The position numbers and the translations under genes are program-made. A stretch of DNA of 64,000 bases, taken from positions 133,922,001-133,986,000 of the forward strand of contig NC_086097.1 in NCBI RefSeq assembly GCF_963921235.1. The letters run 5' to 3'. This document shows, one piece after another, positions 2,955 through 63,730 of the stretch. The notes beneath the pieces were generated by a model. The model was not told the DNA's origin. It did no database searches and saw only the letters and a program-made list of their open reading frames with translations. The DNA is from Mobula hypostoma. Lineage: Eukaryota. Each line of letters starts with the position of its first letter. The stretch's first letter is position 1.

Positions 2955-3160
2955 ACACTGGAAACATACAGCAAGTCAAGCAGCTACTGTGGAGAGGGAG
3001 AAACAGAGTTAACATCTCAGGTCAAAGACCTTATTTCATCAAAATTTTCTAGTTCTGATGAATGGTTTTCAACATGAAATATTGACTCTCTCTCCACAGA
3101 TGCTGCCTGACTTGCTGAGTATTTCCACACTTCCTATTTGAGATTTCCAGCATCTGTAGT
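2955..3160. repeat. Inverted pair of Penelope-derived terminal repeats; the right arm carries a hammerhead motif
   Basis: The left arm (cagcaagtcaagcagctactgtggagag...) is a degenerate reverse complement of the right arm (...ctctccacagatgctgcctgacttgctg). Confidence 0.6.
3051..3087 (+). ncRNA. Minimal type I hammerhead ribozyme motif with intact core
   Basis: AGUU-CUGAUGA-AUGGUUUUCAACAU-GAAA-UAUU-GACU: stem I AGUU/GACU, CUGAnGA and GAAA core boxes, weak stem II (AUG/CAU), palindromic AUAU stem III, NUH triplet AUU. Confidence 0.5.
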
Positions 3161-4789
3161 TTTTTAAAAAATTTTCACCGCTTTAGATAAATATCACTAG
3201 AAACCCCAGTTCCACCTTTTCTTCTTGGAATGTGAATAAGGAATTTACTCAGGTATATATCAAAGATATACTCTTCCTGTCTAACTGCTTGAATACCCCT
3301 TGTTACCATGATGTATTTTCACTGACAAACCTAAACCCATTATTTCCTTCACAGAACAGTTATATCAGTGGAGAGGGACTGCACAACTGGATTACTTTAG
3401 TTGCAGCTTCTAGTAGTTTGCAGACGTGATATATGTATGTAAAGTTCACGGCCAATATACTTAGACTGATATTTGGTCACCGTTATATTGTTGTCTGTGG
3501 AATCCATCCATGTACAAACTTACTGTTGCATGTCCAACAACAGAATTGAGACCAAACTTCAGCAGTACAAACTTAGAAAAGATGTTGTGTAAGAAGTTTT
3601 CTTTTAAGTATCATGAATAAACCAGTTGTGATCTCTTCTTGTTTAATTTTACTAGAGCTAGATTTTATTTCTTCTCTCACAGCTTATGGTTGTTTTAATA
3701 GAAGAGAGAATATTAGAGAAGTGATGGAACAGAACAGATAGAGACAGACAGATTTGAGCCATTGATTGACCTGAAGAATGGGGACAAGTTATTAGACTGA
3801 ATGAGATGGAGAACTCAATGCCCTCCAAAGTCTGAGAGAGGACAGAAACTCTATCAACTGAATAGGATGAATTAATGGTCAGGTTTTGAGAGATAACCAA
3901 GGCCTTGCAAAAGTTTGAGATGAACTTATGAAAATTCAGCTATGTTGCAGGCGAGACAAATTGTGGACATGTTTAACAATTGCAAAGAAGGATATTAAAA
4001 TAATGAGGCATTTTTTCTTTTCTCAAGGCAACTATGAGTTTTTGGGACTCTTCTCAAAGACCAATGAATGCAGAGACTTCTTATATTTTAAAAGAAAGAG
4101 GTAGAAAGATCTTTTATTCACAAGAGAGAGACTGGTTACTGCAAGGAGACTGGAATGAGGAGAAACAATTCTGATCTTATTGAACAATGGCGTAAGCTCA
4201 AGGGGTGAGGTGACTAACTCCTGCTCCTAGTTTATGCATTCGTATGCTCATACATTGCCTCAGCAGAGGCTATGAATGCCATTAGGTGATATTACTCAAG
4301 TACACCCTCCTATACTGTAACTGTCTACACCTGGAAAGCACATCAATAGAATTATTGCCTGAATATTCATCCCAATTAATCATGGCACATAGTGGCATCA
4401 GCACTGGCTTCCCTGACTCTGATACATTTCACTGTCTCTAATGGAAATCATTTCAGAGGTAGAATTGAACGTGATGATACTACTATGTAGGGCATTTAGT
4501 GTTAATGAGCAGGGATGAATCTCTAGGCAATAACTCTTTTGAAGTACCTTCCGAGTACAGTCATTGCTGTAATGTAGGAGGGAGTGCTGGAAGATTATAA
4601 GAATTGTAAATTAGCTAAGTTACAAGCAGCTGTAGTGGTGAGCCACTGATTCGGCCACACAAGTTCAAGTCCACCATGAGAAAGTTCAGATGAGGGAGTT
4701 AGATAAATGTGACATTTTTTAAAATAGTGAGTAACAGCAACTATTGTATTGTCGTAAAAGCCACATGATCCTAGTATCCTCCAAAGACA

Positions 4790-5200
4790 CATTCCTCCCA
4801 CTGTCTCCCTTTCCCCACTGTTTACCTGTTCCTCCCCCCACCTCTGTTACTTGATCCCATGCTCCACCTTTGTCTGCTTTCACATTCCATCATCTGCAGC
4901 CCTTCTAACTGTGAGCTACTACCACCTCCTGACTTCTGACACCAGTCCCATTCTCCCCATTCCCTCCATTCCCTCATCTGCTTATCACCTGGACCTACCT
5001 ATCATGTGCTAGGTCTTGTTCCATCCCTTCCTTCCACCTTTTTATACTGGCTATCACACGCCCCATCCCCATCTTTCAGTCCAGGTGAAGGGTCTCAACC
5101 TAAAATGCTGATTGATAAATTTTCCTCTACACCACAGATGCTTCCTGACCTGTTGAGTTCTCTTAACTCCGGAATCCAGCATCAGCAGTCTCCTGCATCT
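4790..5200 (+). mobile_element. Penelope-like element 3' UTR remnant
   Basis: Pyrimidine-rich tract followed by ttcagtccaggtgaagggtctcaacctaaaatgctga (decayed hammerhead) and agatgcttcctgacctgttgagttc, shared with the other copies. Confidence 0.65.
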
Positions 5201-7444
5201 CAAAGGAAGGAAATTTGCCATTCTTACCCAGTTTGGCCTGTGCATGACTACCTTTCAGCCTTCTTCCCAGTTCAGGCAGGAGAAATAAGAGATAGGCGAT
5301 AAATACCAGCTGAAGCAGTGACCTCAATTTCCTGTGATTTAATAAGTAATTAAAGAACTCAAACCTACACAGTGGTGGAATCTTGCTGCTTATTGACAGA
5401 TCTCATGTAAAGTCACTGGGAATGTTCTCAGAGTTGAATGGTATTTTTAAAACCTAAATGTTCAAAGTGTTAAAGGAGAAGTTTGCTTGAGATAAAGTGG
5501 ATCTGCAGACAATTCTGGCAATAAGCAAAGCACAATTCTACCTATATTAATGACATGCCAAATTTACAAAGGGGCCTGATAATCACTCCTCAAACTTTTA
5601 TATTTCCTCTCCTCATTCATTAGTTGTTCCACTCAATACCTATAATGAATAATGCTCCAAAATATTAACACCTTTTCTCATCTCACTGCTGCCATCAGGC
5701 AGAAGATATGGGAGCCCGAAGACACACATCTCAAAGTTCAACAACTGTTTATTCCCAACTGCCATCAGGTTCTTGAAACGACCTGAAAACCCGAACACTT
5801 CTTTATGCCTCTCTCAATTTGCACTGGTGTTATTATGTTTAGTTTGTTATTTCTGTTCATGTGCAAGTTATGTATAATTTATGTTCAGTTAATCTTTGCT
5901 AACTTATGGTTGTTATGTTTGTAAGGTACTCTGCTGTGACTGCAAAATTCTGATTTTCATGGCATTTGTACCATGTGTATGCCTGAACTTGAACTTCAGT
6001 ACTTAGATGACAATGACCATGATTTACATACTCATTGGACTTTGTTTCTATTTATCCATGATTAACAAAACCAAACGCACCCTATCTATTGACACCAAAC
6101 AACAAAGCAACAAATCTCCCTTAACTGGAAACTTCAGATGCAGATAACTTTGTGAATTAAATTATGGATGACATTATTCACTGCTGTATACTTTCTGTTC
6201 CTTAGAAAATAAATGTCCTTTTCCTTCTCTCTATCACAGGATGTCTCACTCTCTCACCCAATACCATCTCTTTTTCAAAACTGCACTGTCCCTGAAGATG
6301 TGGGGAGCAAGGAAGAATCGAGATGTCTTGCTTTTTGACTCCCTATGCAACATTGCCTCCAGTAGATCCACCAGCTCATAAATATGTGGAAAATCTTACT
6401 TCCTTGAAGGTGGTTTTAAAGCGACCTCCAAGTCTATTTCAAGATGTTCCAAAACACCTTGGAGCTGTGAAGTGTGTGGTACAAGAAATACAGTGGTCAA
6501 TTGCACCGAACATTGTGCAAGGCAATACTGGCCAGGACACTGAGAAGGAAGGACACATACATCTGTCAAAATACTGCAATTGGAAATTTCAAGCTCATAT
6601 GTGTGAGCCTTCGTTTAACATTTCATCCAATGAAAAGCAGCTCCAGCCATATCACGCTTCCTTCCTATTCTACCTGGGGAGTCAGCTGAAAGTTCTATGC
6701 TCAGATCTCCAGAGTGACCGTGGACCTATAACCATCTAACTCAGAGGAGAGAGCAGCATCCATGAAGTCCCCAGCTAACGAAACAGAAAGTTATATAATT
6801 ACAAGTTTTTACAATATTTAAACAAGTTGTTGTTTAAATATTAAGGCATATTCCTATTTAATTAGTTCCCCTGGGCAGATTTTGCTGGTATTGCAGGTGT
6901 CTCCTGTAGTATAAGAAATATGTCTGCATAACCACTGGTAATTTTATGATCACTCAATTTTTGCCCAACCCAATTTAAATGAAAACCTCTCTTTAATCAT
7001 AACCACTTAAGCATCTGTAATTGAATGAGCCCCTATTTCACAATACAAACAAAACTCCAGAGATGACAGATTCCAAACTATTTAACTTTTTCACTCACAC
7101 AAATCAATAATTAACTTTCAGCGAAGTGTCTTCTAGAAGGAATGAACTCAATTGATTTTTACCCCGTAAAATCAATTCTATTTCATATGCATGTGGCACA
7201 CACAAATAGAGATGCACCACAATAAAAGCTGTTGCCTGTAAAAATTAAAACTTCCCTCTCAATACTAATAAATGCAGTCATGAAACCGTTTCTGTGCTAT
7301 TGAAGATATGGTCATCAAATAGCAATCTTCACTTTTGCACCAAAAAAGGAATTTAGACCTCTTTATTTATAACATCGCTGCCAGTATTTATCCGTTCCTG
7401 ATTTGCCCCTTGAATTGAGGAGGCAGCTAGGAATCAACTTCACT

Positions 7445-8370
7445 GTAGAACATAGAATCATAGAGTCACACAGCAGAATACAGGCTCTTAGGGCCAACTT
7501 CTCCCTTCTGACCAAGTGGTATATCCAAGATAACCAGATTGGAAATGTTGCTTTAAGGAAAGAGGGGGGGGGAGGCGGAAGGTTTAAAGGAGATTTATGA
7601 GCAAGGTTTTTTGACATAGAGAATGGATCGCACTGCCAGGGAAAGTGGTGAAAGAAAATATGATTGTGGCATTTAGATGGCACGTGAACAGGGAATGGAG
7701 AGATAGAGACCATGTGCAGGCAGAAGGGATTAGCTTTTTTTGGCACTATGGTCATGAGCCGAAGGGCTACCTACTGTGCTGTACTCGACTATGTTCTGTT
7801 TGATATGTCCCATTTGCCATTTTTGGTCCATATCCTTCTAAACCTTTTACAAAGTGCAGAGAGCACAGAATATTACAGCACAGGAACAGGCCCTTGGGCT
7901 CATGATATCTGTGCCAAAAACAATGCCAAATTAAAATAAATCTCTTCTGCCTGTACAATCTCCCTCCATTCCCTGCATATTTATGTCTCTCTAAAAGCCT
8001 CTTAAATGCCGCTATCATATCTGCTTCCAACACTACCACTGGCAGCCTGTTCCAGGCACCTACCATTTTCTGTGTAAAAACCTGCCCCACACTTCCCCTA
8101 AACTACCCCCTCTCACCTTAAGTGCATATCCTTCAGTATTTGACACTGTACTACTCTGGGAAAATAGATTTTGATAGTCTTCCCTATCTATCCATGTACC
8201 TGTCAAAATGAATTTTCTATATTTTCTATCCATGTATAGTTTAGAAAAGATGTTTTCTAAGCATCTTTTAAATATTGTAATTCTACCTTCCTCTACCACT
8301 TACTCTGGCAGCTCATTACATCTACCCAACATGCTCAGTGTGAAAAGGCTTTTCTTTAGATCTCTTTCAA
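7445..8370. mobile_element. Cluster of CR1 3'-end fragments in both orientations
   Basis: The minus-strand ORF has FTQKMVGAWNRLP..VLEADMIAAFKRLLERH, the typical CR1 ORF2 C-terminus, with gccgaagggc..tgtgctgta 3' ends. Confidence 0.75.
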
Positions 8371-8509
8371 ATCTTTCCCCTCATCCTCCTTCCCTTTCTG
8401 CTCTAGTCCACTCTCCTCTCCTATCAGATTCCTCCTTCTCCAGCCCTTTACCTGTCTACCCACCGAACTTCACCTATCACCTTCTAACTAGCTTCCTTCA
8501 CCTCCTCTA

Positions 8510-9370
8510 ACAAGCGAGAATCTGCAGATGCTGGAAATCCCAGCAACACACACAAAATGCTGGAGGAACTCAGCAGGCCAGGCAACATCCATGGAAAAGA
8601 GTACAGTTCACGTTCGGCAGGACTGGAGAAGAAAACCCGAGGAGTAGATTTAAAAGGTGGGGGAGGGGGGAGAGAAACACAAGGTGATAGGTGAAACCAG
8701 AAGGGGGATGATGAAGTAAAGAGTTGGAAAGCTGATTGGTGAAAGAGACAGGAAGCCATGGAAGAAAGAAAGGTGGGGGGGGGGGAGGAGAAGCACCAGA
8801 GGGAGGTGGTGGGCGGGCAAGGAGAGAAAGTGAGAGAGGGAAAAGGGAATGGGAAATGGTGAAGGGGGGGTGGGGGGCATTACCGGAAGCTCCAGAAATC
8901 AATGTTTATGCCGTTAGGTTGGAGGCTACCCAAACGGAATATAAGGTGTTGTTCCTCCAACCTAACTGTGGCCTCAACATGACAGTGGAGGAGACCATGG
9001 ATAGTCATATTGAAATGGGAATGGGAAGTGAAATTAAAATTAGTGGCCAGTGGGAGACGCCATTTTTTCAGTTGGATGGAGCCTAAATGCTCAGCGAATC
9101 TACGTTGGGTCTCACCGATATTCAGGAGGCCACACAGTACATGACCCCAACAGGCTCACAGGTGAAGTGTCGTCTCACCTGGAAAGACTGTTTAGGGCCT
9201 TGAATGGTAGTGAGGGAGGGGTGTAGGGTTAGGTGTAGCACTTGTTCCGCTTGCAAGGATAAGTGTCAGGAGGGAGATCAGTGGGGAGGGACGAATGGTC
9301 AAGGGAGTTGTGTAGGGTGAAATCCCTACAGAAAGCAGAAAGTGGGAGGCAGGGAAAGATCTGCTTGGAT
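8510..9370 (-). mobile_element. Penelope-like element fragment (GIY-YIG region and 3' UTR)
   Basis: Minus-strand translation includes SSLPTDLPPDTYPCKRNKCYT and LEEQHLIFRLGSLQPNGINIDF-like sequence, followed by a pyrimidine-rich UTR and the cctgctgagttcctccagcattttgtgtg terminus. Confidence 0.85.
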
Positions 9371-9393
9371 CTTCCAACCATGTTACTTGTAAA

Positions 9394-10052
9394 TGACAAA
9401 ACCAAGGATTTGGCAGTGCAGTAGATATGGCAATTGCATTTATGAATTTGCACATGTCAGCTAATTATTATTTAATTGTGATAGTACTTAACTCCATACT
9501 TGTCATCGTGCTTGTCGAGACTTCGAAAGAGCACAGAAACACTTCGCTACCTGTTTGCATTCGGCCTTCACTAAGAAATTGGACTGTCGAGTCAACTGAC
9601 TCTGAAGACTAGTGGTATTCATTTAATGTTTAGATTTTCTTTTCAGCCACAGTATAGGCTTCATTTTCCATTTGAGAGTTTTAGTTAATGGCCCTATTTG
9701 GCCTAGCATTTATTGTTATTTTCCCTTTAACTGTTCGCATTTAAGTTTTGTGAACTATTGACCTGCTTCAGTGTCTCTCACTCCACACTTGGGCCATATC
9801 CAAACCTGGTAACACAAAGATGGACCCAGCAGAGAGAGAGCAGCTGACCTTGGCCGTGAGATTCATTGGTCAGGTAGGAGACAAGCAAACAGACAGTGAA
9901 GTGTTGCTGTGCTCTGTTCAAGTCTTGATAAGTACTAAGACAACAAGTATGGAGTTAAATACTATCACGTTTAAATAATAATCAGCTGACACGTGCAAAT
10001 TCACAAGTGAAATTGCCATATCTACTGCACTGCGGAATCCATGGTTGTGACA
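9394..10052. mobile_element. 659-bp TG...CA element with ~165-bp terminal inverted repeats (Gypsy-LTR-derived or Ginger-like non-autonomous element)
   Basis: 9394-9558 is an imperfect reverse complement of 9885-10052 (TGACAAAACCAAGGATTTGGCAGTGCAGTAGATATGG vs TGTCACAACCATGGATTCCGCAGTGCAGTAGATATGG); flanks GTAAA / GTAAG. Confidence 0.75.
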
Positions 10053-10059
10053 GTAAGAA

Positions 10060-10348
10060 CGCCATCCCCTTCTCTTAATTCCTCCATCTCTGCCGCATCT
10101 GCTCTCAGGATGTTGCTTTTTCATTCTAGAACAAAGGAAATGTCCTCTTTATCAAAGAAGGGGGCTTTCCTTCCTCCACCACCAACACTGCCCTCAACTG
10201 CATCTCTTCTGTTTCATGCATGTCTGCTTTTACCCCATCCTCCCGCCACCCAACTAGGCATATTGTTTCCCTTGTCCTCACCTACCACCCAACTAGCCTC
10301 CACGTCCAGCACATAATTCTCTGGAACTTCTGCCATCTCCAATGCACA
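10060..10348 (+). mobile_element. Penelope-like element fragment (RT C-terminal/linker region)
   Basis: Degenerate AIPFS.FL.L.RICSQD..FHSRTKEMSS sequence typical of Penelope-like ORFs. Confidence 0.7.
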
Positions 10349-11960: not shown

Positions 11961-14900
11961 GCCGAATAATGTGCCTTGGCCCAAATGCTGAATTTGCATT
12001 TTGAATTAGAATGTCCTTCTTAATGCTGCCGCAGAGGTTCTCTGAGGTGCTGTGGGCCTCTTTCCTACAGAAGAGAATATACGTATTTAAAGGGAAGTCC
12101 CTCTGCCTGCACAAAGATGGCCAGGTATCCTTCCAACTACGGCGTACTTCAGATCACAGGTTGTATCTCTCACTGGTGGAAACTTTGCACCTCGCACTCC
12201 TATTTTCTTTTCAAAAAACAGAACCATGGGCCGATCTTTTCACTCTCTATTCCAGGGCATTCTTTATCAGTATGTCACATGTGTAACTCAAATTTCCACG
12301 GCCTCTCCCTCTTTTCCATCTCTCTAATCTCTACTAAACCACCAAGTTTTCCATGCTATTCCACATCTGGCCATTTGTACGTTCCTGATTCCATGACTCC
12401 ACCAAAGGTGGACAAAAACTATCCAGGGTTTAAGGTTTGTAATTCTCATCCTTGATTATTCTTGCCCTGTGCTTTATCTTAATGCTTTAAAGTCGGCCTT
12501 TGTGGACAAGTTGTTTTTCGGTTGTTATCCTAATCTCTCCTTGGTATCAGATCTAGTCCATGAAATGCCTTGAGACGTTTGACAAAATACTGATGTTGTG
12601 GTTAGAAAGGACAAGATTTGTAAACCTTCCCAAAATTAGATGGTCAATGATTGAAGTTTTTGGTAGGTGCAGAAGATAGTGGAGAGATCATCTGTGTGGT
12701 ATTTCCATTAATATTACAGTAAATGAGGGCAAAACGCTCTGGGGTATTCAAGTGATTTGTATGTCTAGCTTGTTGGAAATTATTCTGGCTGCACTTTGCT
12801 TCACATCCATAAGACTGTCGAGTCCATGTCGAGTTCAGCTCTGACTGGCAACTCCTAGGCTGCCGCCGGTGCCAAACTGTATTGGTCTTTGCTGTTCCTT
12901 TGGTTTCATCAACTGAGTGAAGAGGGAGGGCCTGCTACATGGGCAACATCTTGCTCTCCATATCACCTGGCTTGCGTACTAGCTTTCATATCACATAGAC
13001 AGCTGGGATGCAAATCCATGGTCAACCCTGACCAACGGAAGGCCTGAAGGGATTCACATGTATCATGAAATTTCACATGGGCATACAAATTAGAAGCAGG
13101 AGTAGGCTATTTAGCCCCTCGAGCCTGGTTAGCAATTCTGTAAGATCATGGCTGATCTGATTGTAGCCTCTAGTCTGTGTTCTCTTACGATTGCCTCCCT
13201 CCCCTCAGGCAGAAAATACCACCAGGCTCACAGACAGCTTCAATACTGCTGTTATTAAATGGACCTCTTATATAATAAAAGTGGACTCTTGATCTCTCAA
13301 TCTACCCCATCACGGACCTTGCACTGTATTTGTCAACCTGTGCTGTACTTCCTTTGTAAGTATAATACTATACTTCACATTCTGTTTTTTCTTGTTAGCT
13401 ATATATGGAATGGTCTAAATGGCATGCAACCAAAAGCTTTTCATTGTATCTCAGTACATGTGATAATAAACAACCAGTTACTAATTACTATTCCCACTTA
13501 CCCACAATAACCAACCACACACTGCCCCCCCCACCACCCGCACCCCCTCACTTATCAAGGACCTGCCTATCTCCGACTGAAAAGTACTCAGTCTCTGCCC
13601 TCACCACCCTTTGAGGAGACGAGGCCCCAAGATTCACAACCTCTGAGAGAGAAAAATAATAAATTTACATAAACACACTCATTAATAATACCCTAGAACC
13701 AGTGCAATTAGGCAGTGAATTTAAATGTGATGACTTGATTTTTATCCTTTTCACTAAAAGACATTCCTACACGTAGAGAGCATTGACCCTGTTTTAGGTT
13801 TGTGAAAATAAGCTTATCCGCATTTTTTTAAATAAGAATATCTTGAACTCTACCAATGAGCAACATGACTGAAAACGGCATATAAAACATCACTGGAACC
13901 ATTGAACTTTTATAGTGTTCCCCAGTCGGATTCCAAACAGAGCAAACTAATGTTTACAGGAGGGGAGTTTAAAAAGCAGCACAGTATGGAACTCAAAGAA
14001 CTGCCGCTCTGCCTCCTCAAACCTATGCAACTGTTCACTTGGATTATAGCCAATTAGTACCTTGACTCCATTTGTCCCTCATGTTTTTTATGATCCTTAA
14101 TACCCCCTATGCCATCAGCGTCAGTTTTAAAATGGTCTGCTGACACTCAGCGTTAGCAGTCTGTGGGGAGAAGGTTCCAATTTCTACTGTTCTTTGTGTA
14201 AAAAAGCAGTCCTCAAAATCACCCCTAAAAGCCGGGGTCTACTTCTAAGAGTATCCCCCTTTGTTCTGGATTCCTCCATCACAGGAAATAATACCCTATC
14301 ACATCCTTTAATAATATTAAACGATGCTTCAGGTCAAAACCCATTGACCTCCTTCAACAGAACACAAAGCAGTGGAGGAACTCACTGTATCAGGCAGCAT
14401 CAATGGGGAGAAATGGACCGTTGGCATCTGTCAAGACCTTTCATCTGGACTCAGAGAAAGAAGGGGGGGGTAACCAATTTCTCCACCTTTGTACATTGGT
14501 TCTCTCCCCTCTTTCTTTCAGTCCATTTCCCTCACTGACGCTGCCTGACCCACTGATTACTTCCTGTGATTTATGTGTTACTCCACGTTCCAGCATCTGC
14601 AGTCTCTTGTGTCTCTATAGTCTTAAACATCTTCGTTCCATCAATTTATAATTAATTTGTAACATTTAAAATAATTTCTGCTGATAAATGGGACATCTCT
14701 CCCTTTTGACTTAGTAATATTAATGTAAAGAGCCATATTTGAGTGCCAAAGGACTATTACTGACAACATTCTTTCTCTTATGTTAAGCTGCATCATGTGC
14801 TTCAGAGAAATACAGCTCTGTGCTTACTGAGCCTTTTCAGATGATGCAGATTTTTACAGAATGTTGTGTTAATCTATGATACCAAGTCTGCAGCAACACT

Positions 14901-15382
14901 TTATTTTATCATTTAGACTGTAAAAAGAAAATTGATGTTTTTGATGGAATTTATAATCGCATGGAGATGGCAGCTGATTAAGGGGCGGGCAACTGGGGAA
15001 AATACTGCACTGAGACAAGAATGTGTGTTGATCAAGAAACAGCTGCCTTCTTGTTCATCACCAGGTTTGTTTATGACTTCTCCATGATGTGGGAGGAGGC
15101 GAAAGCTGCTTCTCTTCCATCTCAGCAAGTCGGCAGCACTCCAGATTCTGCGTCATGCAGTTGTGGGTTCAAGTTCCAGCCCAGAAGCAAGAGGCCAGAG
15201 ATCTGTACAGTGCCGACAGTATGTTGCATCACTGGAGGTACTGTTACTTGGATGTAATGTTGAACTCATTCCTGTCTGCCTTAAATCTATGTTATAGTTG
15301 CTACAAGGCAGAACAGAATCCTGGTTATCTTTCCATGTTTTGGTATTTTCAGTACAGATTATCGTTCCTTGCCAAACTATTT

Positions 15383-15949
15383 TACACTCAGCGGCCACTT
15401 TATTAGGTGCCCTCTGTATCTAGTAAAGTAGCCACTGAGTGTATGTTCATTGTATTTTGTTACTGTAGCCTATCCACTTGAAGATTGGACATGTTGTCCG
15501 TTCAGAGACCACACCACAGTGTAATGGGTTGTTACTTGAGTTACTGTCGCCCTCCTCCCCTCCTGTCAGATTGAACCACTCTGGCCTATCTCATTGACAA
15601 GGTATTTTTGCCCACAGAACTGCTGCTCACAGGATGTTTGTATTTTTGTTTTATTGTTTTCTGCACCATTCTTTGTAAACTCCAGAGACTTGTGTGTGTG
15701 AAAATCCCAGGAGATCAGCAGTTTCTGAGATACTCAAACCACCCCGTCTGGCACCGACAATCATTCCACGGTCAAAGTCACATAGATCACATTTCCTCCC
15801 CATTCTGATGTTTGGTCTCAAGAACAACTGAACCTTTTGACCGTGTCTGCCTGCTTTAATGCATTAAGTTGCTGCCACATGATTGGCTGATGAGATATTT
15901 GCATTAATGAGCAGGTGTACAGGTGTGCCTTATAGAGTGGCCACTGAGT
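15383..15949. mobile_element. Tc1/mariner-type non-autonomous element (MITE) with an internal extra TIR
   Basis: TA-CACTCAGCGGCCACTTTATTAGG at 15383; reverse-complement TIRs ending at 15441 (followed by TA) and at ~15949. Confidence 0.7.
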
Positions 15950-16378: not shown

Positions 16379-16487
16379 GACAACACACATAAAATGCTGG
16401 TGGAATGTAGCAGGCCAGGCAGCATCTATAGGAAAAGGTACAGTCGACGTTTCAGGCCTAGACCCCTTGTCAGGACTAACTGAAAGA
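16379..16487 (-). repeat. Penelope-derived terminal repeat with hammerhead motif (16478..16441; G8 mutated)
   Basis: Minus strand UAGUC-CUGACAA-GGGGUCUAGGCCU-GAAACGUC-GACUG. Confidence 0.75.
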
Positions 16488-16989
16488 TCACATAACAGAA
16501 GCAGCTTACTGAGTGTATATCCCATGCCGCATAGGAGAAGAAAGAAAATTTGCTCTTACGTTACCCTTCCCAATTATCACGGTCAAATGAGATTCTTTTG
16601 TAAAGCGTGATGTAGAAAATATGACAGCCATTTCTGCACAGCAAGCTCTCCTCTACAGATCAAACCATTGCGCATTAAATGCTACAGAACAGGAAAATGG
16701 AAGCTTCATGTCTACATGGATCGTGTAAGTTTTGGTGTCAGGTTTCTCTGAGTTACAGTATATTGGAGCACCTTGGGAGAAATGGCTGAACAGAGAGCTT
16801 TTCTGTTCAAAAGCAACTTATGTGTGCAATTCACAAAGTACTGGCAGAACTCAGCAAGTCAGACAGTATCTATGGAGGGGAACGGTCAGTTCATGTTTCG
16901 GGTCGAGACCCTTTGTCCTATCCTCTTCACGTGCCTTGCATGAACTGACAGGCAGATAAACTCCATCCCCAATTACTACACTGACAAAG

Positions 16990-17579: not shown

Positions 17580-18040
17580 AAGGCAGCACACCCTTCATTT
17601 GGACTGAAAGGAAGAGGGGAAAAGCTGGCAGAAAAAGGTGTAGGGATAGAGTAGAGCAAGAGCTTCCAAATGACAGGAGGAACAAGGTGAGGGAGTGATA
17701 GACAGATGAGGAAGAATGGAGAGTGGGAATGATGTCAGAAGCTAGGAGGTGATAGCTGGATGGATATCAAAGGACTGAAGATGTTAGAATCTGATTAGAG
17801 AGGATGGTGAACATGGAATAAAGGGAAGGAAATGTGCAGTTGGAGAGGAAGGTTTTGAAGAGATATGGTTTTGGGGCCCAGTTGGATTAGGAAGAGAGAG
17901 AAAAGGAAAAAAAATGTTGGGAAAAGTAAACAGAGGAGGAATGGTTACTGGGAGTTTGGGAATTTGGTGTTCATGCCACCAAGTTGGAGACTAGATATGA
18001 GGTTCCATTAATTTGCATTTACCCTTGACCTGGAGGCAAT
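17580..18040 (-). mobile_element. Old Penelope-like 3' fragment
   Basis: Purine-rich plus-strand tract bounded by cccttcatttggactgaa and gttcatgccaccaagttggagac, corresponding to the LQPDGMN-coding end. Confidence 0.6.
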
Positions 18041-19402: not shown

Positions 19403-19682
19403 GATGGAAGTGACTGACCTCTGCAATTGGCAGCTATCCAGTTGTTGGGCTTTTTGTGACATGAATCCACCACTTGTTCAATGGCACCAACCAATCACCA
19501 TGCAGCAATTTCCAGCAAGGGCTAACTTACCCTCAAATGATATCCACCAAATAGACTTAATCATATGAATAGCATAAAGACCAGGTTGGGTCTGAAATCA
19601 CAGTTAGATTCTCCTCAATTTTGGGTAGTTCCTGTCACTTGTTCTTAAATTATCAATTAAGGGAGGGGGGAAAAAGAGGAGA

Positions 19683-20189: not shown

Positions 20190-20191
20190 AT

Positions 20192-49000: not shown

Positions 49001-49779
49001 CCAATAGGTGATGGTCTTGCCTCACCTCACCCATCAAAATCCACATTGTACTTAGAAATTTTGCCTCTGAGAATTAGGTTACCTGATGGCACCTTCAGGC
49101 CATTCCATCACTGTAAACTACAGTGCAGCATTTCACCAAGAGTAATCCCTCGGGACCATAATAGACCTAGAATCTGTATATTTGCTACTTATAAACGTTT
49201 GTATTTAAAAGTTGCAATCAGACTTTTGTTGCTTGATAAAAATCTGGATAATAGCATTTATACATTTTTCCACACTTTTCTGACAAAGTATTTGGTCTGC
49301 CTCAATACTTTAACAGTCAAAAACCCACAAGGACTTGAAGGTGCCAATCAATAGACTCCAGAGGGTAGTAGATGCTATTTGCATGGTGTGAGTATGTTAA
49401 AGCTTCCTCTGTGTCTGCAATAATCTTCATTAAATCTTAAGTAAACAAAATGCATTCTCTTTTATTTTAAATCTCCTCAGACATGCTGAAGGAAAAGAAC
49501 AAGCGAAAGGTTGTCACCATATTTACACAGCTTTATTCCATGCTTGAGATAGACTGTCATCATTTAGAAATGATCAGGCTCTTCTCAGACAAGGAATAAA
49601 TTGGACATCACAGTGTTTGTCATGGCATATCTTTGCTTTAATAATTCTAATTCAGATATAGTTAGCTCTCAAATGAAAATGTTGTATTGATTTCTCAGGT
49701 TTCTCAGGCATTTTTTTTATTCATTTACAGAGCGTGGCCACCTCAGATGAGCCCGTTTTAATTGGGTGATTGTTTAACA

Positions 49780-52070
49780 CATTACCTAGTCCTATTCCCT
49801 GAGCTTCCTGCTGCAGCCCACTTTAATTCCCAATTTCAATCCTATTCCAATTTGTCCCTCTGTGACCTTCTCCACCACTAAGGTGAGACCCAACGTAAGC
49901 TAGAGGAACAATATTTTATCTTCTGCAACAAACAACCTGCTGGAGGAGCTCAATGGGGCAGGCGGCCCTTATGGAGGGAAGTGGGCAGTCAACACTTCAG
50001 GTTCAGATCCTTCATCGGGATTGAATGGCAAGTCCAGGTGAAGGGTCTCAAATCAAAATGTTGCCTGTCCATTCTCTCCATAGTTGCTACCTAACCCATT
50101 GAGTTTTGGCAGCATCTAAAGTAACACACACACAATGTTGGAGCAACTCAGCTGGTCAGTTCCATGGAGATGAATAAATAGTCAATGTTTGGGGCCAGGA
50201 TTCTTCATCGGAACTGGAAAGGAAGGGGGAGGAATCCAGAATAAGAAGGTGGGGGAAGACGAAGGAATGTTGCTCAAGATGACACCAGCGACCGACGCAA
50301 CTAACAATGGAGCAATCTGCCATTTTTGCTGTCTCCGAGGGAATTCAGTGTGATTGAGAGCGCAAATCCATGATTGGCTCCATTACTTGCCGATCTCACT
50401 GATTAAAAGGTGGCGCAAGATTAAAATCAATGAGAACAAGAGTGGAAGATGAGCGAGTGTTCAGCGCCGTCTGCCTGCGTTTCACCAGTCTCTCTTGCTC
50501 TCTGTCTCGCTCACTGCTGCTACAGGAAGGTGCAGGAGCCTTTGGTCTTGGGCAAAGTTTGAACAGCGTGGCTTGTGGATTGGCCTTGTTTTTAGAGGAC
50601 TCTGCAGTTCATGTTATATGCATTTCTGATTACTCATTTTTTATTTGTTATTTTGCACTATTTTGATCCGGGCACTTCGACACGGATTGGCTCTGCAGCC
50701 TTAAGTCAACAAATGACACAGTGCTAAATCAAACTGAACACAACTAGACTGAACATTCCTAGACTGTTTCAAGGACTCTGCGGTTTGATGTTTAATATTC
50801 CATGTGTTATTCACTCGTTTTTTTGCCGTTTGCATGATTTGTTCTTTTTTTTGCATGTTGGGTGGTTGATGCACTCGCTGAATGGGTTCCACGGTGTTTC
50901 TCTGTTTCATGGCTGTCTACAGAAAGACAAATCTCAGGGTTGTACACTGCATACATACTTCAATAACAAATGTATTTTGAACTTTGAACAAGCTGGCAAG
51001 TGATAGGAGAAACCCGGTAAGGGGGAAGGTGAGTTTGTGGGAACCGTGGATGAAGTGCAAAGCTGGAGGGTGATGGGTGAAAAAAGTAAAGGGCTGTAGA
51101 AGGAATCGGATTAGAGAGGAGAGTGGACCATGGGAGAAAGGGAAGGAGGAGGGGAACCAGAGGGAGGTAATAGGCAGGTGAGGGGAAGGGTAACAGGGGA
51201 GTCAGGCAGGAACGGAAAAAGAGAGAAAGGAGAAGGGGAAAATTACCATAAGTTAGAAAAATCAATTCATGCAGTGAGGTTGGAGGCTACCTAGACAGAA
51301 TATGAGGTGTAGCTCCTTCAGCCTTAAGACTGTCCTCATCGTAGCAGTACAGGAAGACATGGTGGAATGGGAATGAGAAGTGGAATTTAAACGGGTGGCA
51401 ACCAGGAAATCCTGCCTCTTTCAGACAGAGTGAAAGTGCTGACGTGACCAAGATCTACCAGCATTTTATTGTTTCTACAGATTCCCTCTGGACCCTTGTG
51501 TGAACTTTTTATCTTCTATCTGGGCAACCTTATGAAATGAATACTGAATTCAGGTAACTGTCTGCTCATTGCTTCCCATTACCATGCTGGCGTCCCTTTC
51601 AAAACCTGTCTCTGTAAAATGCCTCCCTAACAATCAGTACTCCTGCTCCTTGTCACCTGATCTGTCTTAACCGACAAACAAGATGGTGGAGGAACTCAGT
51701 TGGTCAGGTCAAGAGAAATGGGCAGTCAATAGATAGCATCTGTACTGCTGAAGGATCTCGGCCTGAAATGTCGTTTGTCCATTTCTTTCCAATGATGCCG
51801 TCTGACTGAGTTGCTCCAGCATCTTGGCTATTGCTCTGGATTCCAATATCTGCAGCCTCTTGTGTCTTAACTAAACTCCATATGGTCACTTTTCTTACCC
51901 CCTTCCACCTTCCACCTCCACCCCCACCCCAGCTCTGCTTTGTAAATTATAAAACCTCTACTCTCCCCAAGTCCTGAAGGAAGGTTCCTGACCTGAAATA
52001 TCAGCTTTCACAGATACTGATCGACTGATTGACTGGCTAAGTTCTCCCTGCATTCAGTTTCTCTTTCAGC
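49780..52070. mobile_element. Nest of Penelope-like 3' fragments in both orientations, with a ~0.7-kb LINE-tailed insertion at ~50268-50988
   Basis: KLEEQ..IF-like coding ends near 49895 (+) and 51260-51320 (-); hammerhead remnants at ~49985-50065, 50180-50215, 51743-51775 and 51970-52005; the insert ends in a (ttgaact)n tail. Confidence 0.7.
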
Positions 52071-57029: not shown

Positions 57030-57038
57030 GCTTACCTG
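57030..57038 (-). promoter_or_regulatory. 5' splice donor CAG|GTAAGC 7 nt downstream of the tshz stop codon (exon end 57036)
   Basis: Minus strand reads ...AAACAG TAG TATCCAG|GTAAGCAG, a near-perfect donor consensus. Confidence 0.65.
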
Positions 57039-57042
57039 GATA

Positions 57043-60000
57043 CTACTGTTTCTCAAACTCAGTTACATATAACAGATGGTCCTCTGGAGACTTGCCATGT
57101 GTTTTGCTAAGGTGCAATTTGACCGCATGTTTGCTTACAAATGTCCTGTTGCACATTTTACACTGGAATGTCGAGTTTACATCCTCCTCGGACATCCCAA
57201 CTGAGTTCACGGACCTATTTGGTATCACCTTAGAAACCGCCTGCTGCTCGCGAAGCTGCTCTACCGATAACTTGGAGAGATCCTTCATAGAAAACCCCAG
57301 GTGAGTCTCCAGGTGAGCTATGTAGCTGGAAGGAGTCCTAAACTGTGAGGCACAATCATTACAGAAGAAAACCGGGTGACCCGTGTCTAAGTTCTTCAGG
57401 AATTTCGTTCCACCTGTCCTTCTTAACTGATATTTGACGTTGGCTAGCCAATGGCTTATCGTGGTCATGGAGAGGCCAGTGAACTTTGAAATGTGTACCC
57501 GCTCGTGGAGGTTTAAGTCCGACATGATGTATTTGCCTTCGGAAGACTCCCGTAAGCTGGCTGCAAATTGAGCTTGCAGCATCAGGAGGTGTTGGGGGTT
57601 CCAGTTAGACTGCCTGCCCTTCCTTTTCTGGACGGGAGAGACATCCTCCAAGGTTTCCTCGAAGCTGCTGGCATCGGCTTCCGACTTCTCCGACACCGTA
57701 GAGGGGGTTGACGACTTGGGCGTCAGCCGTCCCGTGAGGTTCTTCACCATGTCAGAGATGTCCAACAGCGCATTTTCCCGTGATGTGGAGAGAATCGTTT
57801 CCGTCATGGCTGAAATGAGCTTCTTGTTGCTTTTCGATTTGGTTAAGTCTATTGGCTGATCATTATTTTCATAGTAGTACCGGTCCACAATGTCCGCCTG
57901 CTTGACCTGAGTGGCAGGGAAGATGGGCTTGTCCAGCACACTGTTGCTGATTTTGTACAGCATGGCCAAGGGGTCAAGACTGGGACTTAGGGGCTTGGCT
58001 GCCTTGCCCAAGTGTGTGTTCATAATTGACTGGAGAGCACTGAGCGGATTGACAAATGGCGACTCAGGTGACTGGTCAGTGATAATTGCCATACTGTTAC
58101 AGCCATTGCTGACCGTTGACCTAAAACACTCCGTCCCATTTGGGAAAGAGCCATCCAAATTGGTCTCCTTCTTCACTTTCACCTCCTGGCCATCGCTGTT
58201 TCTCAATGGTTGGATTGAAACGTCACTGTCTTCGGCCCTGGGTGAGTCCCTCACAGCTGGGGATGAGGAGCCGCAGGCAGCCTTGATTCTGGGAGCGGCT
58301 GCCTGCTCTTTCTCCACAGCCTTCTCTTCTGCCTTGATGGTCATTTTGCCCGTGACCTTCTCCACCAGCTCTTCCATGGCATGGACATTGCTCTTCTGAG
58401 GCGGCGGTGACTGGCACTCTGAGGGCTCCACGACAGCGAGATGCTCGGAAGATGGGGCCTTCAGGTTGTTGGTGTAGAACGGGGTTGATTGGGCGTTCTG
58501 CCCTGTTGTTTGAAAGGGTCTGATCGCTCCTGAGAGCTGATAAGCAGCATGAATGCTTGGATAGCCTCCCCACGTGGGAGCGCCATTCTGGGCTTTGTTG
58601 ATGGCGGAGGTGACCGTGTTCTCCAGAGACTTCAGGATATCAATACCGCCTTTAGGACTCTCATCCAAATCTTCCTCCCGCAGATACTGGTACTGGGAAG
58701 TGGATTCAAACTTTTCATCATGATCATCCCTCTCCTCCTTTATCTCCCTCTCCTTCTCGTCCTCCTCTGCCGGCTCTTCTTCCTGCTCCTTCCCCTCGTC
58801 AGCCAGCGGCGGTGGCGAGGTTTCAGGCTTGGCTTGGGCAGTGGGTGCCACCAGCCGTGCCGGGGTGGAGGGGGGCAAGGGAATGGACTGGATCTTCTCC
58901 TCGGCCACCGCGTCGAACACCAGCTGCTTGCCCTTCTTTGAGGCGGAGTTGGTGACCTTGAGGAAGTGCCCAGTCACCATCATGTGCGCCGTCAGCTGCT
59001 GCAAGGTGTCGTGGGAGCTCCCGCACTCCATGCACTTGAGGATCTGCGCCTTGCGGGCCTCGAACTGCCAGGTGTAGCTGGCGCCATTCTGGTAGCCGTA
59101 GCGGTTGTTAGGAGTCACGTAAGGATTGGCCGCTTTCTGGGCTGAGGCCGACTCTCCAGCAGACAGGCCTGAGGGATTTGGGGCAGACTCTGGAGAGCAG
59201 GGCGGAGGTTCCTGAGGTGCCCTCCTCTTGTTGGGAGGCAGAAGCTTGGAGGCCAAGGCCGGCACAGGCTCCTTGAGGGGCACCTTCTGATAGTGCTTGG
59301 TCTTGATCATGTGAACGCTGAGGTCCTGCAGGGACTCGAAGGAGTGGCCACAGTACATGCACTTGAGGACCTTCTGGGCGTCCTCCTTGCCCTCCATCTC
59401 CATGAGGGAGCGTTTCCTGGGCTTGGACCACTTGCGGGGGTTGTCGGGGTCCCGATCGCGGTTGTCATCGCGGTAGTGGCCGGTCTCGTTCATGTGCACA
59501 GTCAGCTCTACCAGGGTGTCGTAGGCCGAGCTACAGTCCTTGCAGCGGAACTTGCTGGCGCCGGTGAACACCGACCCAAACAGTTTGTTCTGCTGCCTAT
59601 ACAGCTGCACGGTGCTGAACAGGCTGGGTTCGGGGATGATTCCATAGGAGGTCTGCTGCAGCGTCTTGGCCAGAGCGGCCTGGTGCCAGTCGTAGCCCAC
59701 ACCTCCGCCGCTGCCGTTGTGACTGCTGCCGTTGCTGCTGCCACTGCCACTGGCCTGGTTGGCCGTCTTCAGGTCCAGGCCCAGGCTGGTCCAGTAGGAG
59801 CTGCTCAGCAGGTTGGAGTAGGCCGCCTTCATCTGCGCCAGGCTGTCCCGTGACGCCGGCAGCCTGTCCTCGGCCAGCCCCTCCTCCCGCTCCTGCCCGT
59901 CCTTGGACGAGACGCTCCGCAAATCTGCCAGCTGGTCGCTGGCGTCGCTGACAGGCGACCTACTGCCCGGCTCAGGATTGGCTGTCATGCTGGCTGGTGA

Positions 60001-60146
60001 GTTCTGGCAGCTGGCCGCCTCTTTGCTCTCTTCTTCCTCCTTGGGGCAATGGAACTCGCAGTCCTGCTCCCCCGCCGCAGGCAGCTCATCCTCGGGCAGG
60101 TCCTTGCTCAAGTCAGCTGCCTTCAGTTCCTCTTCGGGGACGTATG
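57043..60146 (-). CDS. tshz1: Teashirt zinc finger homeobox protein (TSHZ family; closest overall to TSHZ1, with several TSHZ2-like residues), coding exon 2; exon 1 lies outside the window
   Basis: The ORF reads (A)YVPEEELKAA...YDWHQAALAKTLQQ, three Teashirt C2H2 fingers (CKDC..HMNETGH, CMYC..HMIKTKH, CMEC..HMMVTGH), a PIDLT CtBP-type motif (57855..57841), the atypical homeodomain RKGRQSNWNPQHLL...WLANVKYQLRR, two C-terminal fingers, and ends YVTEFEKQ*. Acceptor ctttgtctttctttcctttgtcAG|CA at 60147/60146, phase 1, as expected for the short MPRRKQQAP.. exon 1. Family call is near certain; the paralog symbol is tentative. Confidence 0.93.
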
Positions 60147-60844
60147 CTGACAAAGGAAAGAAAGACAAAGAAGCATTACCCAGAGCTGAGCACACTAGGG
60201 GCAGCATACTGTCAGGCCAGAGGATCGTACACCCCAGGACTGGAGAAGGCCAATCAATTCCTCCCATTCAACTGGATCTAAACTCCATCTACCCCAAACA
60301 TACCCAGAGTTACAGTCAAAAATCCATTAACTTGGACAAGGGCATAACAGTGAACTTCAGGACATCATAGAGTTAATTTCATGACATCTGGTCATTGCTT
60401 ATATGCTAGAAACAAGTCAGCCACTGTGTGTTTAGCAAGGTTCCATAAATACTTCTTTGTCCCTACCCCACCTGACCCCATCAGCCCATCTTTCCCCTTC
60501 CCAGCCCTCTCCATCATTCCTCCCACCAAATCTCCGCCCCACCTGACTCCTTTTATTCCTTGTTCCACTGTCCTCTTCAACCAGATTCCATCTTCAGCCC
60601 TTTGTTACTTCCACCTGTCAGCTGCCAGCTACTTACACCATTCCCACTCCTCTCCTCCCTTACCTACCTATCATCCCTCCCCTCACCTCGCCAGGATCCA
60701 CCTATTGCCCACCAGCTCGTGCTCCACTCCTTCTCCCCACCTTTTCATACTGGCTATCTCCCCTCCATATTTCAGTCCAGATGAAAGATCTCAGCTCTCC
60801 CTGGAGATGCTGCCTTGGCCGTTAAGATCCTTTTAGGACTGGCA

Positions 60845-61160
60845 GGCACGGTGCTGTAGCACTTAGCATTGCAATATTACAGTGCCAACTGCAAGATCGT
60901 GGTTCAATTCCCACCACTGTCTGTACTGAGTTTGCACGCTCTCCCCGAGACTGCATGCATTTCCTCCAGATGCTCTGGTTTCTGCCCAAATTCCAAAGGT
61001 TAAGCTTAGTGAGCTGTGGGCATGAGATGTTGGTGGCAGAAGCATGGTGACACTTGCAGGTTACCCAGCACAATCCTCGGTGATTTGATTTGATACAATT
61101 GATGTGTTTCACTGTATGGTTCAACGTACATGTGACAAATAAAGCTAATCTAATATCTAA
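60845..61160 (+). mobile_element. tRNA-derived V-SINE-like element in tshz intron 1
   Basis: B-box GGTTCAATTCCC, V-domain-like gagtttgcacgctctcccc...tttcctccagatgctctggtttc, tail aataaagctaatctaat. Confidence 0.7.
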
Positions 61161-63730
61161 TATTCCTGTTTGCTATTCCAGATTTCCAGCAACTGCAGTT
61201 TCTTGTATCTCCATTATTGTCATGATGTTTATTTGATACCCCGTCTTTAATGATAATGATAGAGGGGTTAACATTGGTGAGGCACCAAAGATAACTAAAA
61301 GACACAAGATACCAGAGATGATGGAGCAGCAGAGAATCTGCCAAAGTCAAATTCGTGAGTTTATTCTCATATGCTCAAGTACTGTACATGTGTGCCCAAG
61401 GCGGTGCAATGAAAAAAGTTACTTGCAGCAGCATCACAGGCACGCAGCATTAGACACACAACATTCACAAGAAAAACATAAATTCCACAAAATTATATAA
61501 GGGAGGAAACAAATAGAACAACAAAGAACAAAGTCCTTTGTAGTGCAGTGGTCAAATCGGTTAGCTCATTGGGGTAAGCAATACCTGTGGGGAAAAAAAA
61601 TGAATTGTCAAAGTTTGTATCAAAACCAAGCATTGGGACCTAAATCTTTGTTGAATTATTGCCTTGGTATTCTTTGTATGCCACTGGAAAATGTCACCTC
61701 CAACAATGCAGCCCTTCTTCAGTTTTGTGCAGGCACCATCGTTCTAGATTTTTGAGCTTAGGTCTTTAGAGTGGGTGTTACTTTCTGGTTCAGAGGGGAG
61801 AGAAGTTCCTGATGAGCTACTACTGACACACTGAAGATGTTTAGAAGCTAGTGTTAGGGTATTCAGGCCCTCGATTCTACAGTGAAATATTAGCTCCACC
61901 AGAGAACCTGGGGTTTAAGTTCGAAAAGCTCTGGTGCTAATGGAACCAGAGCAGCAACTGTGGAGAAGAGCAGACTGACCCAAAAGGAAGATACTGCAAG
62001 AGTGGGGAATTTAAAATTATCAGGTATCGATAAAGTAGACAGCCAGAATCTTTCATTCAGCAATAGACATGTAGAGTGCTAGAGAACTGAGCTTTAAGGT
62101 GGGGGAGGGGTGCAAGTGCTTTTTACACTGGGAGTTCCAGGTGCCTGGAGCTTGCTGCCAGGGTGATGGCAGTAGCAGATATGATAGTGGCTTTTAGACC
62201 AGCACATGAATATGGAGATATGAATTATCTGCAGGCAGAAGGAATAAGTTTAATTTGGCATCGTGCTCGACACAGACACCGTGGATCTAAGGGCCTGTTC
62301 CTGTGCGGCAGTGTTCCGTATTAATTGTTCAATCAGTAATTGCAGCCTCTTCAGATCACATTTCCAACTCCCACAGGGCTCTTCCAGATATTTATTTGTC
62401 CTGTTTGCATTCCTCCCCCCCCCCCGTAGCTTCCGTTAATCACTTACACCTTTACCACCCTCTTTCAGCAGCACTATCTGTATCATTCAGTGCCCTCTGC
62501 TGTCCCTCATCACTGATCTTGCCTCTCATTCTCTCTGCTCCCCAGACTTCCCCCCTGCATCTGGAAATGTTTTCCAACCTTACCCAGTTCTGAAGGAAGA
62601 TCACTGAACTGAAACATTAGATTGCTCTACCTCTGTGGATGCTCCCCAACCTGCTGAGTGCTTATGGCCTTTTGTAGTTTATATAAGATTAGATATCAGT
62701 GACTGTGAGTGTTTAAGTTTTTTTTTAAATTATATTGTTCATTAGATCAATTGACAAGGAAATAAGTCACCAAACTTTAGGAAGTGCACACCCTAACAAC
62801 AAGATTTGATCATAAACTAAAACTGCTTTTACCAGAGAGACAGCATATGACTCTAGACTGGAGACCCAGAGGCCTGTTCTGGGTTTGGAGTGCTGACTAT
62901 CTGTGCGGATCGGTGAGTGGGGGGGAGGAAAGGGGCTTGTTTTGCTGTTGTTGTTCTGTTGATTGTTGTGTTCTGTGCTGCTCTGCTGAACTTTGTGGCC
63001 GTGCTATGTTGGTGCCAGAATGTGTGGCAAACCCGCGGGCTACCCCCAACACATACTTAGGTTGTGCTGATTATTAACACAAACAACATGTTTCACTGTA
63101 TGCTTGGAAGTATATGTGTTAAGTAAACCGAATCTGAATCTGAATGAGACCTCACCGGCAACTTCCCTAATCCTCGTTAGACAACATTATCACAAGAGAT
63201 TGCACTAAATGTCGCCATTACCCACAACGTCCCAGGTACTGGTATTGTTAGACTGACCACTGCCTAATCTGCACTGTAATTTCCATCAACCACTGGAAAG
63301 ACTGATCTTGATGGCCTCAAGGAGCCCATGAAAATCAAGAAACATTCATCAGAAGCTCTCACAAACTCAGTGCAACTGGTGAAAGGAGCTCACCACTGCC
63401 CACCCAGAACACCTACCCCACCCAGAACCTCCTGGCCTTCCTATGCGTCCCACACTTGCCTCATCAGCCAGCTCAGAAACCACAGAATCAGACTGGAAGC
63501 AAGACACCTTCAATACCAAGCGACTGCCTAAAGTAGAAGGTAGAGTACTATAGTATATAAACAGGCCCTATGGCACAACAGGTCCATGCCAACCACAGCT
63601 TCCTCCCTGCTAGTCCCAATTGCCTGCATAACCCTCCAAGCCCTGCCCCTCCATGTACCCGCCTGAATCACTTCCTCTGGGAACTCATTACCCTCTGTGT
63701 TAAGAAATTATCTCTCAGAACTCTTAAACC

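Follow-up and report, generated by a model that had tools for sequence, protein, structure and literature searches.

What is the short hammerhead-like motif that recurs across a 64,000-nucleotide (nt) stretch of the Mobula hypostoma genome, how did its copies arrive there, and can any of them still cut RNA? The stretch, called the window below, is NC_086097.1, positions 133,922,001 to 133,986,000 of the forward strand, and all positions given here count from its first letter. The motifs are very probably the 3′ ends, or pseudo-long terminal repeats (pseudo-LTRs), of a Penelope-like retrotransposon that is of the Neptune/Nematis type and has been amplified enormously; a ribozyme step is predicted for it. 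As part of the same reading, the window copies would be inert fossils that decay neutrally after insertion.

Motif copies and their fit to the minimal hammerhead

The window holds 23 motif copies (denoted by position and strand) from about 18 insertions, and shuffled windows hold none. A profile made from the window copies gives 22 matches of at least 15 bits, the best score across 10 shuffled windows being 7.5 bits; an earlier, first profile had no match in 20 shuffles. Copy 17607− reaches only 3.5 bits by the profile, and its link to the family is 400 nt of upstream sequence. Including pieces without the motif, the family amounts to 5,963 bases, or 9.3% of the window. A previous reading of the letters without database searches (the sequence-only reading) had reported about a dozen copies. 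All of them are real, the repeat being present on the reported strand at each of its 14 sites (49985 is a minus-strand copy and 50030 a plus-strand copy), although nine copies had been overlooked. An Rfam scan of the window with E up to 5 returned no hammerhead and five matches, all microRNA look-alikes, and pattern scans for further copies found none in metagenome, viral and prokaryote genome contigs.

In the family majority, a CUGANGA core, an extra base, GAAA and NUH stand in register, which single window copies do not achieve. The family consensus has five pairs in helix I and four in helix II, with G10.1-C11.1, and 74.6% of the stem cells are paired in 17 copies, compared with 15–50% when slid. 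A 4-nt palindrome at 15.1–16.1 replaces helix III in the family majority, and the palindromic 15.2–16.2 and the U-rich 5′ flank match the published consensus. Judged by its letters, the family motif fits the published minimal hammerhead consensus at every position. This fit and the endonuclease remnants described below bear out the earlier proposal of a Penelope-type minimal type I hammerhead. The consensus proposed there is identical to the majority sequence of the four youngest copies when five ties are settled in favor of CpG.

The family was also followed in public contigs of four out of 24 listed runs, compared with positions 18880–19420 (541 nt). X1 is a DNA run, and X15, X16 and X17 are guessed to be RNA. 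Contigs needed 80% likeness to a young copy, depth is not copy number, and the figures are those of the matches listed. In X1, 80,710 of 28,298,499 contigs fall on the 541-nt stretch; with 23 copies in 64 kb, the very high copy number that had been supposed is confirmed. At the four letters altered in the 19300 copy, the intact letter makes up 63, 66 (G12), 62, and 97% of the depth in X1, and 74–96% in X15–X17. Thus, in the contigs of the four runs, the intact core letters are the majority letters of the family. Family sequence is present in all three runs guessed to be RNA.

The Penelope-like carrier and its insertions

The master element runs from a reverse transcriptase (RT) through a cysteine linker, a GIY-YIG endonuclease and a stop codon to a pyrimidine-rich untranslated region (UTR) of ~330 nt, the hammerhead, about 60 nt more, and an optional tail of 30–40 nt. 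Three copies (19299+, 8614− and 17607−) sit ~260–400 nt 3′ of the endonuclease stop. The sequence-only reading had placed several copies downstream of GIY-YIG remnants; in the orientation of the element, this is right for 19300, and for 8614− and 17607−, which it had not listed, but for no other site that it had listed. The clusters at 49985 and 51743 abut endonuclease remnants of other insertions.

Pfam gave no relevant match for seven window remnants of the element, whose identity comes by way of homologues; the RT core lies outside the window. A search with a 91-residue piece of the element yields 259 relatives at an E of 0.001 or less, and of 27 longer candidates eight are also relatives. 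When 13 relatives were scanned with Pfam, GIY-YIG was found in seven (one above the cut-off) and RT also in three; P0097 matches RVT_1 (E 4e-9) and GIY-YIG (E 2e-4), and P0102 matches GIY-YIG above the Pfam cut-off. By tblastn, the longest copy, 8497–9430 (−), in which most of the core and helix II are deleted, matches P0009 with an E of 2e-45, and the endonuclease piece of 18825–19398 matches P0019 with an E of 5e-17. We infer that 8497–9430 and 10019–10342 are pieces of one insertion. The CX2-5CxxC linker is whole in the homologues P0009, P0019 and P0097, and at 9232–9260 in the window it shows two cysteines and a stop at the third. Such a linker is characteristic of the Neptune and Nematis clades (Craig et al. 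2021, PMC8557442), and the cysteine motif is the basis of the putative assignment to the Neptune/Nematis type.

A reading frame through the motif, or from an ATG behind it, was considered and rejected, since the spacing differs between subfamilies and no frame is kept. A search for read-through into the motif among 155 proteins, intended to count U4A, gave six matches, all by chance. The database protein models P0023, P0109, P0017 and P0043 fuse the endonuclease end of the element to host genes (receptor, RecQ5, NYAP-like), which is mis-annotation or exonisation. One contig each in X15 and X16, which come from one study, joins 19375 back to 18916, that is, the 3′ end to endonuclease sequence, and this joint may be a tandem copy, a nested copy or a circle.

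The shapes of the insertions tell how they were made. There are five head-to-head inverted pairs in the window, with four of the five junctions located near helix I. A tail probe finds at least 12 of 16 letters in 8 of the 23 copies and at most 11 in the others, and the tail is confined to one arm in four of the five pairs. Target duplications of 10–14 base pairs (bp) occur at 4 of 13 insertions tested (p 0.003, 0.003, 0.007, and 0.043 against 300 random flank pairs); as they occur at short copies, these copies were already short on insertion. Measured from helix I, 20 copies have 5′ ends between −32 and about +800 nt, with boundaries set by hand, three copies left out, and paired ends not independent. 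A tandem-repeat search of the window, with four matches, showed no head-to-tail arrays of the unit. Inverted truncated copies with a 30–40 bp tail at one end have been described for Penelope-like elements (PMC8557442), and in the anole element the tail is the span between two RT start sites (PMC11167929).

From these shapes and from in vitro work on the anole element, a course of insertion can be proposed. The protein of the element would nick the target, and reverse transcription would start at one of two sites 3′ of the hammerhead, giving ends with and without tail. Copying would usually end early, often at the hammerhead, and two opposite-strand complementary DNAs would sometimes be joined head to head. 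The junctions at 24881–24888 and 51731–51741 contain short pieces copying other parts of the element (helix II sequence and tail-like sequence, respectively), a sign of extra template jumps.

The sequence-only reading had also invoked a separate element like a short interspersed element (SINE). Such an element is unneeded, because 5′ ends are found anywhere from within the motif to points over 800 nt upstream, in sequence coding for endonuclease and RT, and it is further opposed by the inverted pairs, one-sided tails and target duplications, which are described marks of truncated Penelope-like insertions (PMC8557442). For a tRNA-, 5S- or 7SL-derived polymerase III promoter, no Rfam match was found in the window with E up to 5, and no dedicated promoter-box scan was made. 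A short template RNA could nonetheless exist, given the preference of 5′ ends for a boundary near helix I.

Between 49762 and 52106, six motif copies and three endonuclease-end remnants lie within 2.3 kb, as would be expected if elements had inserted into older copies or next to them.

The predicted ribozyme step, contrary evidence and rival explanations

Several results weigh against a Penelope-like origin with a ribozyme step. No full-length element with two pseudo-LTRs was seen in the window or in five collection scans of metagenome, viral and prokaryote contigs. Target duplication is missing at 9 of the 13 insertions (14453/14524 scored 0, and the boundaries of long copies are approximate). 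Ten of the 20 5′ ends lie within 11 nt of the helix I start, above the expectation for plain truncation. Stem covariation, which the sequence-only reading had proposed to look for, is absent from 17 aligned copies, 463 of 500 shuffles being as high. The non-CpG core is better conserved than other non-CpG motif letters (145/164 vs 269/331) by no more than a borderline margin (p 0.052). In folding energy, neither the consensus (z of −1.5) nor four copies (z of −1.2 to +0.1) surpass shuffles. Lastly, U4 is changed in 8 of 18 copies, to A in six and to C in two (p 1.6e-4 against other non-CpG core sites).

The lack of covariation is not decisive because the copies are fossils; young and old types differ only by one-sided stem swaps, U-G to U-A and U-G to C-G. 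Core conservation, proposed along with covariation, holds in the comparison with downstream sequence, where the non-CpG core scores 145/164 and the downstream letters 546/717 (p 5e-4), but this difference is confounded, since bias from selection and from the alignment may enter into it. What it favors is selection acting on the master elements rather than on the copies.

The minimum-energy fold of the consensus monomer is a rod of −13.5 kcal/mol that makes up 61% of the ensemble (−11.7 kcal/mol if position 7 is U), compared with −9.5 kcal/mol for a hammerhead-like fold, and in the rod G5–G8 are paired with the cut-site strand. Because these core letters can pair in that way, the master ribozyme would most likely be off as a lone monomer, and it may cleave only as a dimer via the 4-nt palindrome, or with help from the protein of the element. 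A self-blocking monomer fits the reports that minimal hammerheads have no monomer activity and low dimer activity (PMC4209133; review PMC6765202). For the anole element, cleavage is protein-assisted and dispensable for insertion (PMC11167929). A hairpin in the tail was considered as well and is unsupported, the fold z-scores of the copies and the downstream region being not significant.

The motif might no longer cut even in recent masters, serving a structural or spacing role for the RT complex or hitch-hiking, with at least one subfamily having spread with U4A. This is compatible with a Penelope-like origin and competes only over the ribozyme step. The U4 changes speak for it, and three long U4A copies have a common old-type UTR (65–74% alike), so that U4A points to inheritance. 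Moreover, 20 of the 23 copies span the predicted cut (one starts 2–3 nt before the cut, one starts after it, and one ends before it); with sequence on both sides of the cut, their templates were uncut or re-ligated RNA. Hammerhead mutants left insertion in vitro unaffected (PMC11167929), and Naiad elements spread without canonical hammerheads (PMC8557442). On the other hand, the dominant young families keep every core letter, the same core is retained from cnidarians to reptiles (PMC4209133), and a viroid U4C variant retains enough activity (PMC3088659, the relevant part of which mentions U4C, not U4A). In contigs at least 80% like a young copy, the T-to-A changes listed at U4 stay below 8% in all four runs, as do the A-to-G changes listed at the core adenines in X1. 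Loss of cutting in the masters is possible, though we consider it unlikely.

Splicing into the AG of helix I is a weak lead. This AG, in the 5′ arm, follows a pyrimidine-rich run (63–90% over 30 nt in 12 copies), and GT lies over the stop codon in four of five ends of the open reading frame (ORF). One X17 contig connects 18972 with 19301, as splicing would do in one subfamily. Among the joints listed, this one appears in one of the four runs, with a depth of 37 vs about 240,000 nearby and 23 letters on its short side, and other joints to 19301 occur in the DNA run. Combining this lead with the locked monomer and the spread of U4A, the hammerhead could be a regulated switch that transposition can do without, with a splice acceptor at helix I and a donor over the stop codon, which appears improbable as a whole. 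If it were true, helix I would be altered by splicing, as happens in the fly element, and the short template that would account for the clustered 5′ ends could arise in this way; the widely spread older U4A subfamily would then be a natural test of whether cleavage matters in vivo.

A short template could also mean a separate non-autonomous unit (SINE- or retrozyme-like) beginning near helix I, produced from a promoter or through splicing, which the Penelope-like protein copies to yield some of the short copies. The ten clustered 5′ ends (−11 to +10 nt of helix I), the four inverted junctions at the same place and the target duplications of short copies agree with it, and non-autonomous pseudo-LTR derivatives have been described, one chondrichthyan being among their hosts (bioRxiv 10.64898/2026.07.22.740005). 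However, the other ten ends are spread (−32, and 29 to about 800 nt), and the clustered ones are not at one base. Short and long copies share subfamily letters (16479−, 24880− and 24889+ with 19299+), and head-to-tail arrays of the unit are absent from the window. Furthermore, RT can stall at the stable hairpin, and short extensions go unseen in low-complexity UTR. We hold a separate short template for quite doubtful, and favor truncated insertions of the Penelope-like element itself.

No window copy has a complete core and intact stems together. All 11 core letters are aligned in 3 of the 23 copies, of which two carry an extra base between G8 and A9, and the third, 3050+, has lost G10.1-C11.1, has U at position 17 and takes an alternative fold. 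At the five CpG sites of the motif, CG is retained in 17 of 91 cells and replaced with TG, CA or TA in 65, although some TG at 7–8 may be inherited. CpG decay dominates the loss in the window copies, and the motif is lost fast because two of the five CpG sites lie on G8 and G12. The statement that most copies had lost G8 or G12 by CpG decay is barely right, with G-to-A changes at 8 of the 14 sites, but G12 became C at one site, and both letters are kept at five. That at least one window copy is a working or co-opted ribozyme cutting host transcripts is scarcely credible: 3050+ keeps its core letters and family sequence occurs in the runs guessed to be RNA, but 3050+ folds otherwise, and all other copies are short of core letters or have one base too many. 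Partners on the same strand are dead, and a zinc-finger ORF that has two copies upstream of it runs on the other strand. Nor was there any site at which the starts or ends of many molecules coincide, although contigs are unable to reveal ends. A chance match in an ordinary repeat is just as hard to believe. The lack of an Rfam match, of covariation and of excess folding energy speaks for it, but in the family majority the 11 core letters are in register with both helices, the extra base and the palindrome, and the motif occupies the position reported for hammerheads in Penelope-like elements (PMC4209133).

Among the decayed copies, five have internal deletions in or just behind the hairpin (8614−, 14453−, 14524+, 43845− and 60772+), and 14524+ is without the whole motif. 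One CpG carries an identical double change in copies 8614− and 16917−, which read G at position 17 and A at position 1.1. Copies 51970+ and 62585+ share the extra G and a similar helix II, and are probably a third, older family.

Features of the window and comparison with known elements

Table 1 Positions of the reference motif and of the family copies in the window
Feature	Position	Strand	Remarks
Reference motif	19300–19337	+	G12A and three other changes in the 19300 copy
Helix I 5′ arm of reference motif	19300–19304	+	
Core C3–A9	19305–19311	+	
Extra A	19312	+	
Helix II	19313–19324	+	
G12–A15.1	19325–19328	+	
Palindrome	19328–19331	+	
Predicted cut	between 19332 and 19333	+	
Helix I 3′ arm	19333–19337	+	
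Inverted pair 1, arm without tail	2950–3041	−	C3U, A14G
Inverted pair 1, tailed arm	3046–3163	+	11/11 core letters kept; helix II broken, H17=U, alternative fold
Old-type copy, 260 nt of 3′ UTR and tail	4819–5195	+	U4A, A6G, G12A, U16.1C
Longest copy	8497–9430	−	Linker with broken cysteine motif, frameshifted GIY-YIG 8883–9430, 3′ UTR, hammerhead, tail
Inverted upstream piece, end of RT/thumb region	10019–10342	+	E 2e-27 to P0019
Inverted pair 2, arm without tail	14350–14480	−	U4A; 3-nt deletion over G12
Inverted pair 2, tailed arm	14480–14604	+	Entire hammerhead deleted beyond helix I 5′ arm
Young ~107-nt copy	16381–16487	−	Perfect 11-bp target duplications; sole core change G8A
Copy beginning within core	16826–16917	−	G8A, H17=G
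Old-type copy	17590–18000	−	Last ~14 endonuclease codons, full 3′ UTR; ends inside helix II; U4A, G5A
Young-type truncated element	18825–19398	+	Last ~50 GIY-YIG codons (18823–18975), ~325 nt pyrimidine-rich 3′ UTR, motif; no tail
Inverted pair 3, arm without tail	24781–24881	−	G8A; junction filled by 8-nt copy of helix II sequence
Inverted pair 3, tailed arm	24889–25022	+	U4A, G12A; pair flanked by 14-bp duplication (12/14 alike)
Old fragment starting downstream of motif, with tail	36350–36422	−	
Copy starting at A9, tailed	36817–36945	+	G12A; 10-bp duplication (9/10)
Copy with 117 nt of old-type UTR	43750–43961	−	G12A, helix II broken, deletion 3′ of cut site
Endonuclease remnant, other insertion	49762–49944	+	E 3e-8 to P0005; abuts 3′ end of 50024− copy
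Inverted pair 4, left arm (site 49985)	49925–50024	−	U4C, A15.1G
Inverted pair 4, right arm (site 50030)	50029–50116	+	U4A, A6G, G12A; ends against next copy
Copy tail to tail with 50029–50116 copy	50121–50259	−	U4C, G12C
Endonuclease end and 3′ UTR without hammerhead	50991–51420	−	
Inverted pair 5, arm without tail	51673–51730	−	Start 2–3 nt before predicted cut site
Inverted pair 5, tailed arm	51741–51862	+	A6C; 11-bp duplication (10/11, partly inside tail)
Divergent old copy	51966–52060	+	One extra G between G8 and A9
Old-type copy upstream of zinc-finger ORF, opposite strand	60501–60822	+	U4A; 3′ half of motif deleted
Divergent old copy	62430–62675	+	Same extra G between G8 and A9 as 51966–52060

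The window as a whole has a G+C content of 43% and a CpG observed/expected ratio of 0.27. An ORF of 1,074 codons at 57043–60267 (−) encodes C2H2 zinc fingers and is presumably teashirt-like; no repeat copy lies between 52106 and 60500. At 9387–10059, where the inverted RT piece adjoins the remainder of the longest element, sits what looks like a small DNA transposon, an insertion whose 117-nt inverted repeats are 86% complementary and separated by 439 nt. A nearly whole long interspersed element (LINE) occupies 19629–23119 (+), with an esterase-like first ORF, an endonuclease, an RT and a few stops. Two 3′ ends of another LINE (RT and an ALKBH8_N-like domain), at 1653–2783 and 40407–40940 (+), are 96% alike over 300 nt. 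The short palindromic elements at 15380–15446 and 38611–38685, with weak Rfam matches to microRNA precursors, are likely miniature inverted-repeat elements.

A literature search, to which repeat databases and subscription journals were outside, found no paper describing this Mobula family, and the part of the Figure S3 list of PMC4209133 that was examined contains no cartilaginous fish. The family adds one more vertebrate case to a motif class described in 2014. A family so large, whose exact insertion ends are marked by target duplications and whose subfamilies differ in the core, is useful material for work on the function of Penelope-like hammerheads. It allows insertions from cut and from uncut RNA to be counted, and the spread of the U4A lineage to be compared with that of the U4 lineage.

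The motif shares with the metazoan minimal hammerheads (Cervera and De la Pena 2014, PMC4209133) the core, the extra base after A9, G10.1-C11.1, the palindrome in place of helix III, the short helix I and the U-rich 5′ flank. It likewise occurs mostly as solitary copies from truncated elements, with close opposite-strand pairs. In contrast, helix II is short here (4 bp), and U4A is absent from their consensus. The density of 23 copies in 64 kb is far above that implied by the 4,000–9,000 intact motifs of coelacanth and frog (PMC4209133), although counts of decayed and intact motifs are not comparable.

In the green anole, the Poseidon element PAc (Frangieh et al. 2024, PMC11167929) has, as proposed here, a hammerhead upstream of two RT starts that define an optional tail, both strands cut and extended, and uncut RNA as the main substrate. 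PAc differs in belonging to the Penelope/Poseidon clade, with an ORF that starts in helix II, whereas the Mobula family has a linker with the Neptune/Nematis cysteine motif and keeps no frame through the motif across subfamilies. With Neptune and Nematis elements (PMC8557442) it has in common the C-terminal GIY-YIG, the CX2-5CxxC linker, the 5′ truncation, and inverted truncated copies with the tail at one end.

The animal non-LTR retrozymes, reported in one chondrichthyan genome, are similar in being non-coding type I hammerhead units traced to Penelope-like pseudo-LTRs (bioRxiv 10.64898/2026.07.22.740005). They differ in that theirs are head-to-tail tandem units with intact motifs, whereas the window contains solitary or inverted, truncated, dead copies. 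Finally, the 5′ UTR intron of Drosophila virilis Penelope ends at the 5′ arm of helix I (PMC2377424, PMC4209133), with an AG preceded by a run of pyrimidines, and such an AG stands here at the same place; the putative intron of the Mobula family differs in that it would be ~330 nt long and start at the stop codon of the ORF.

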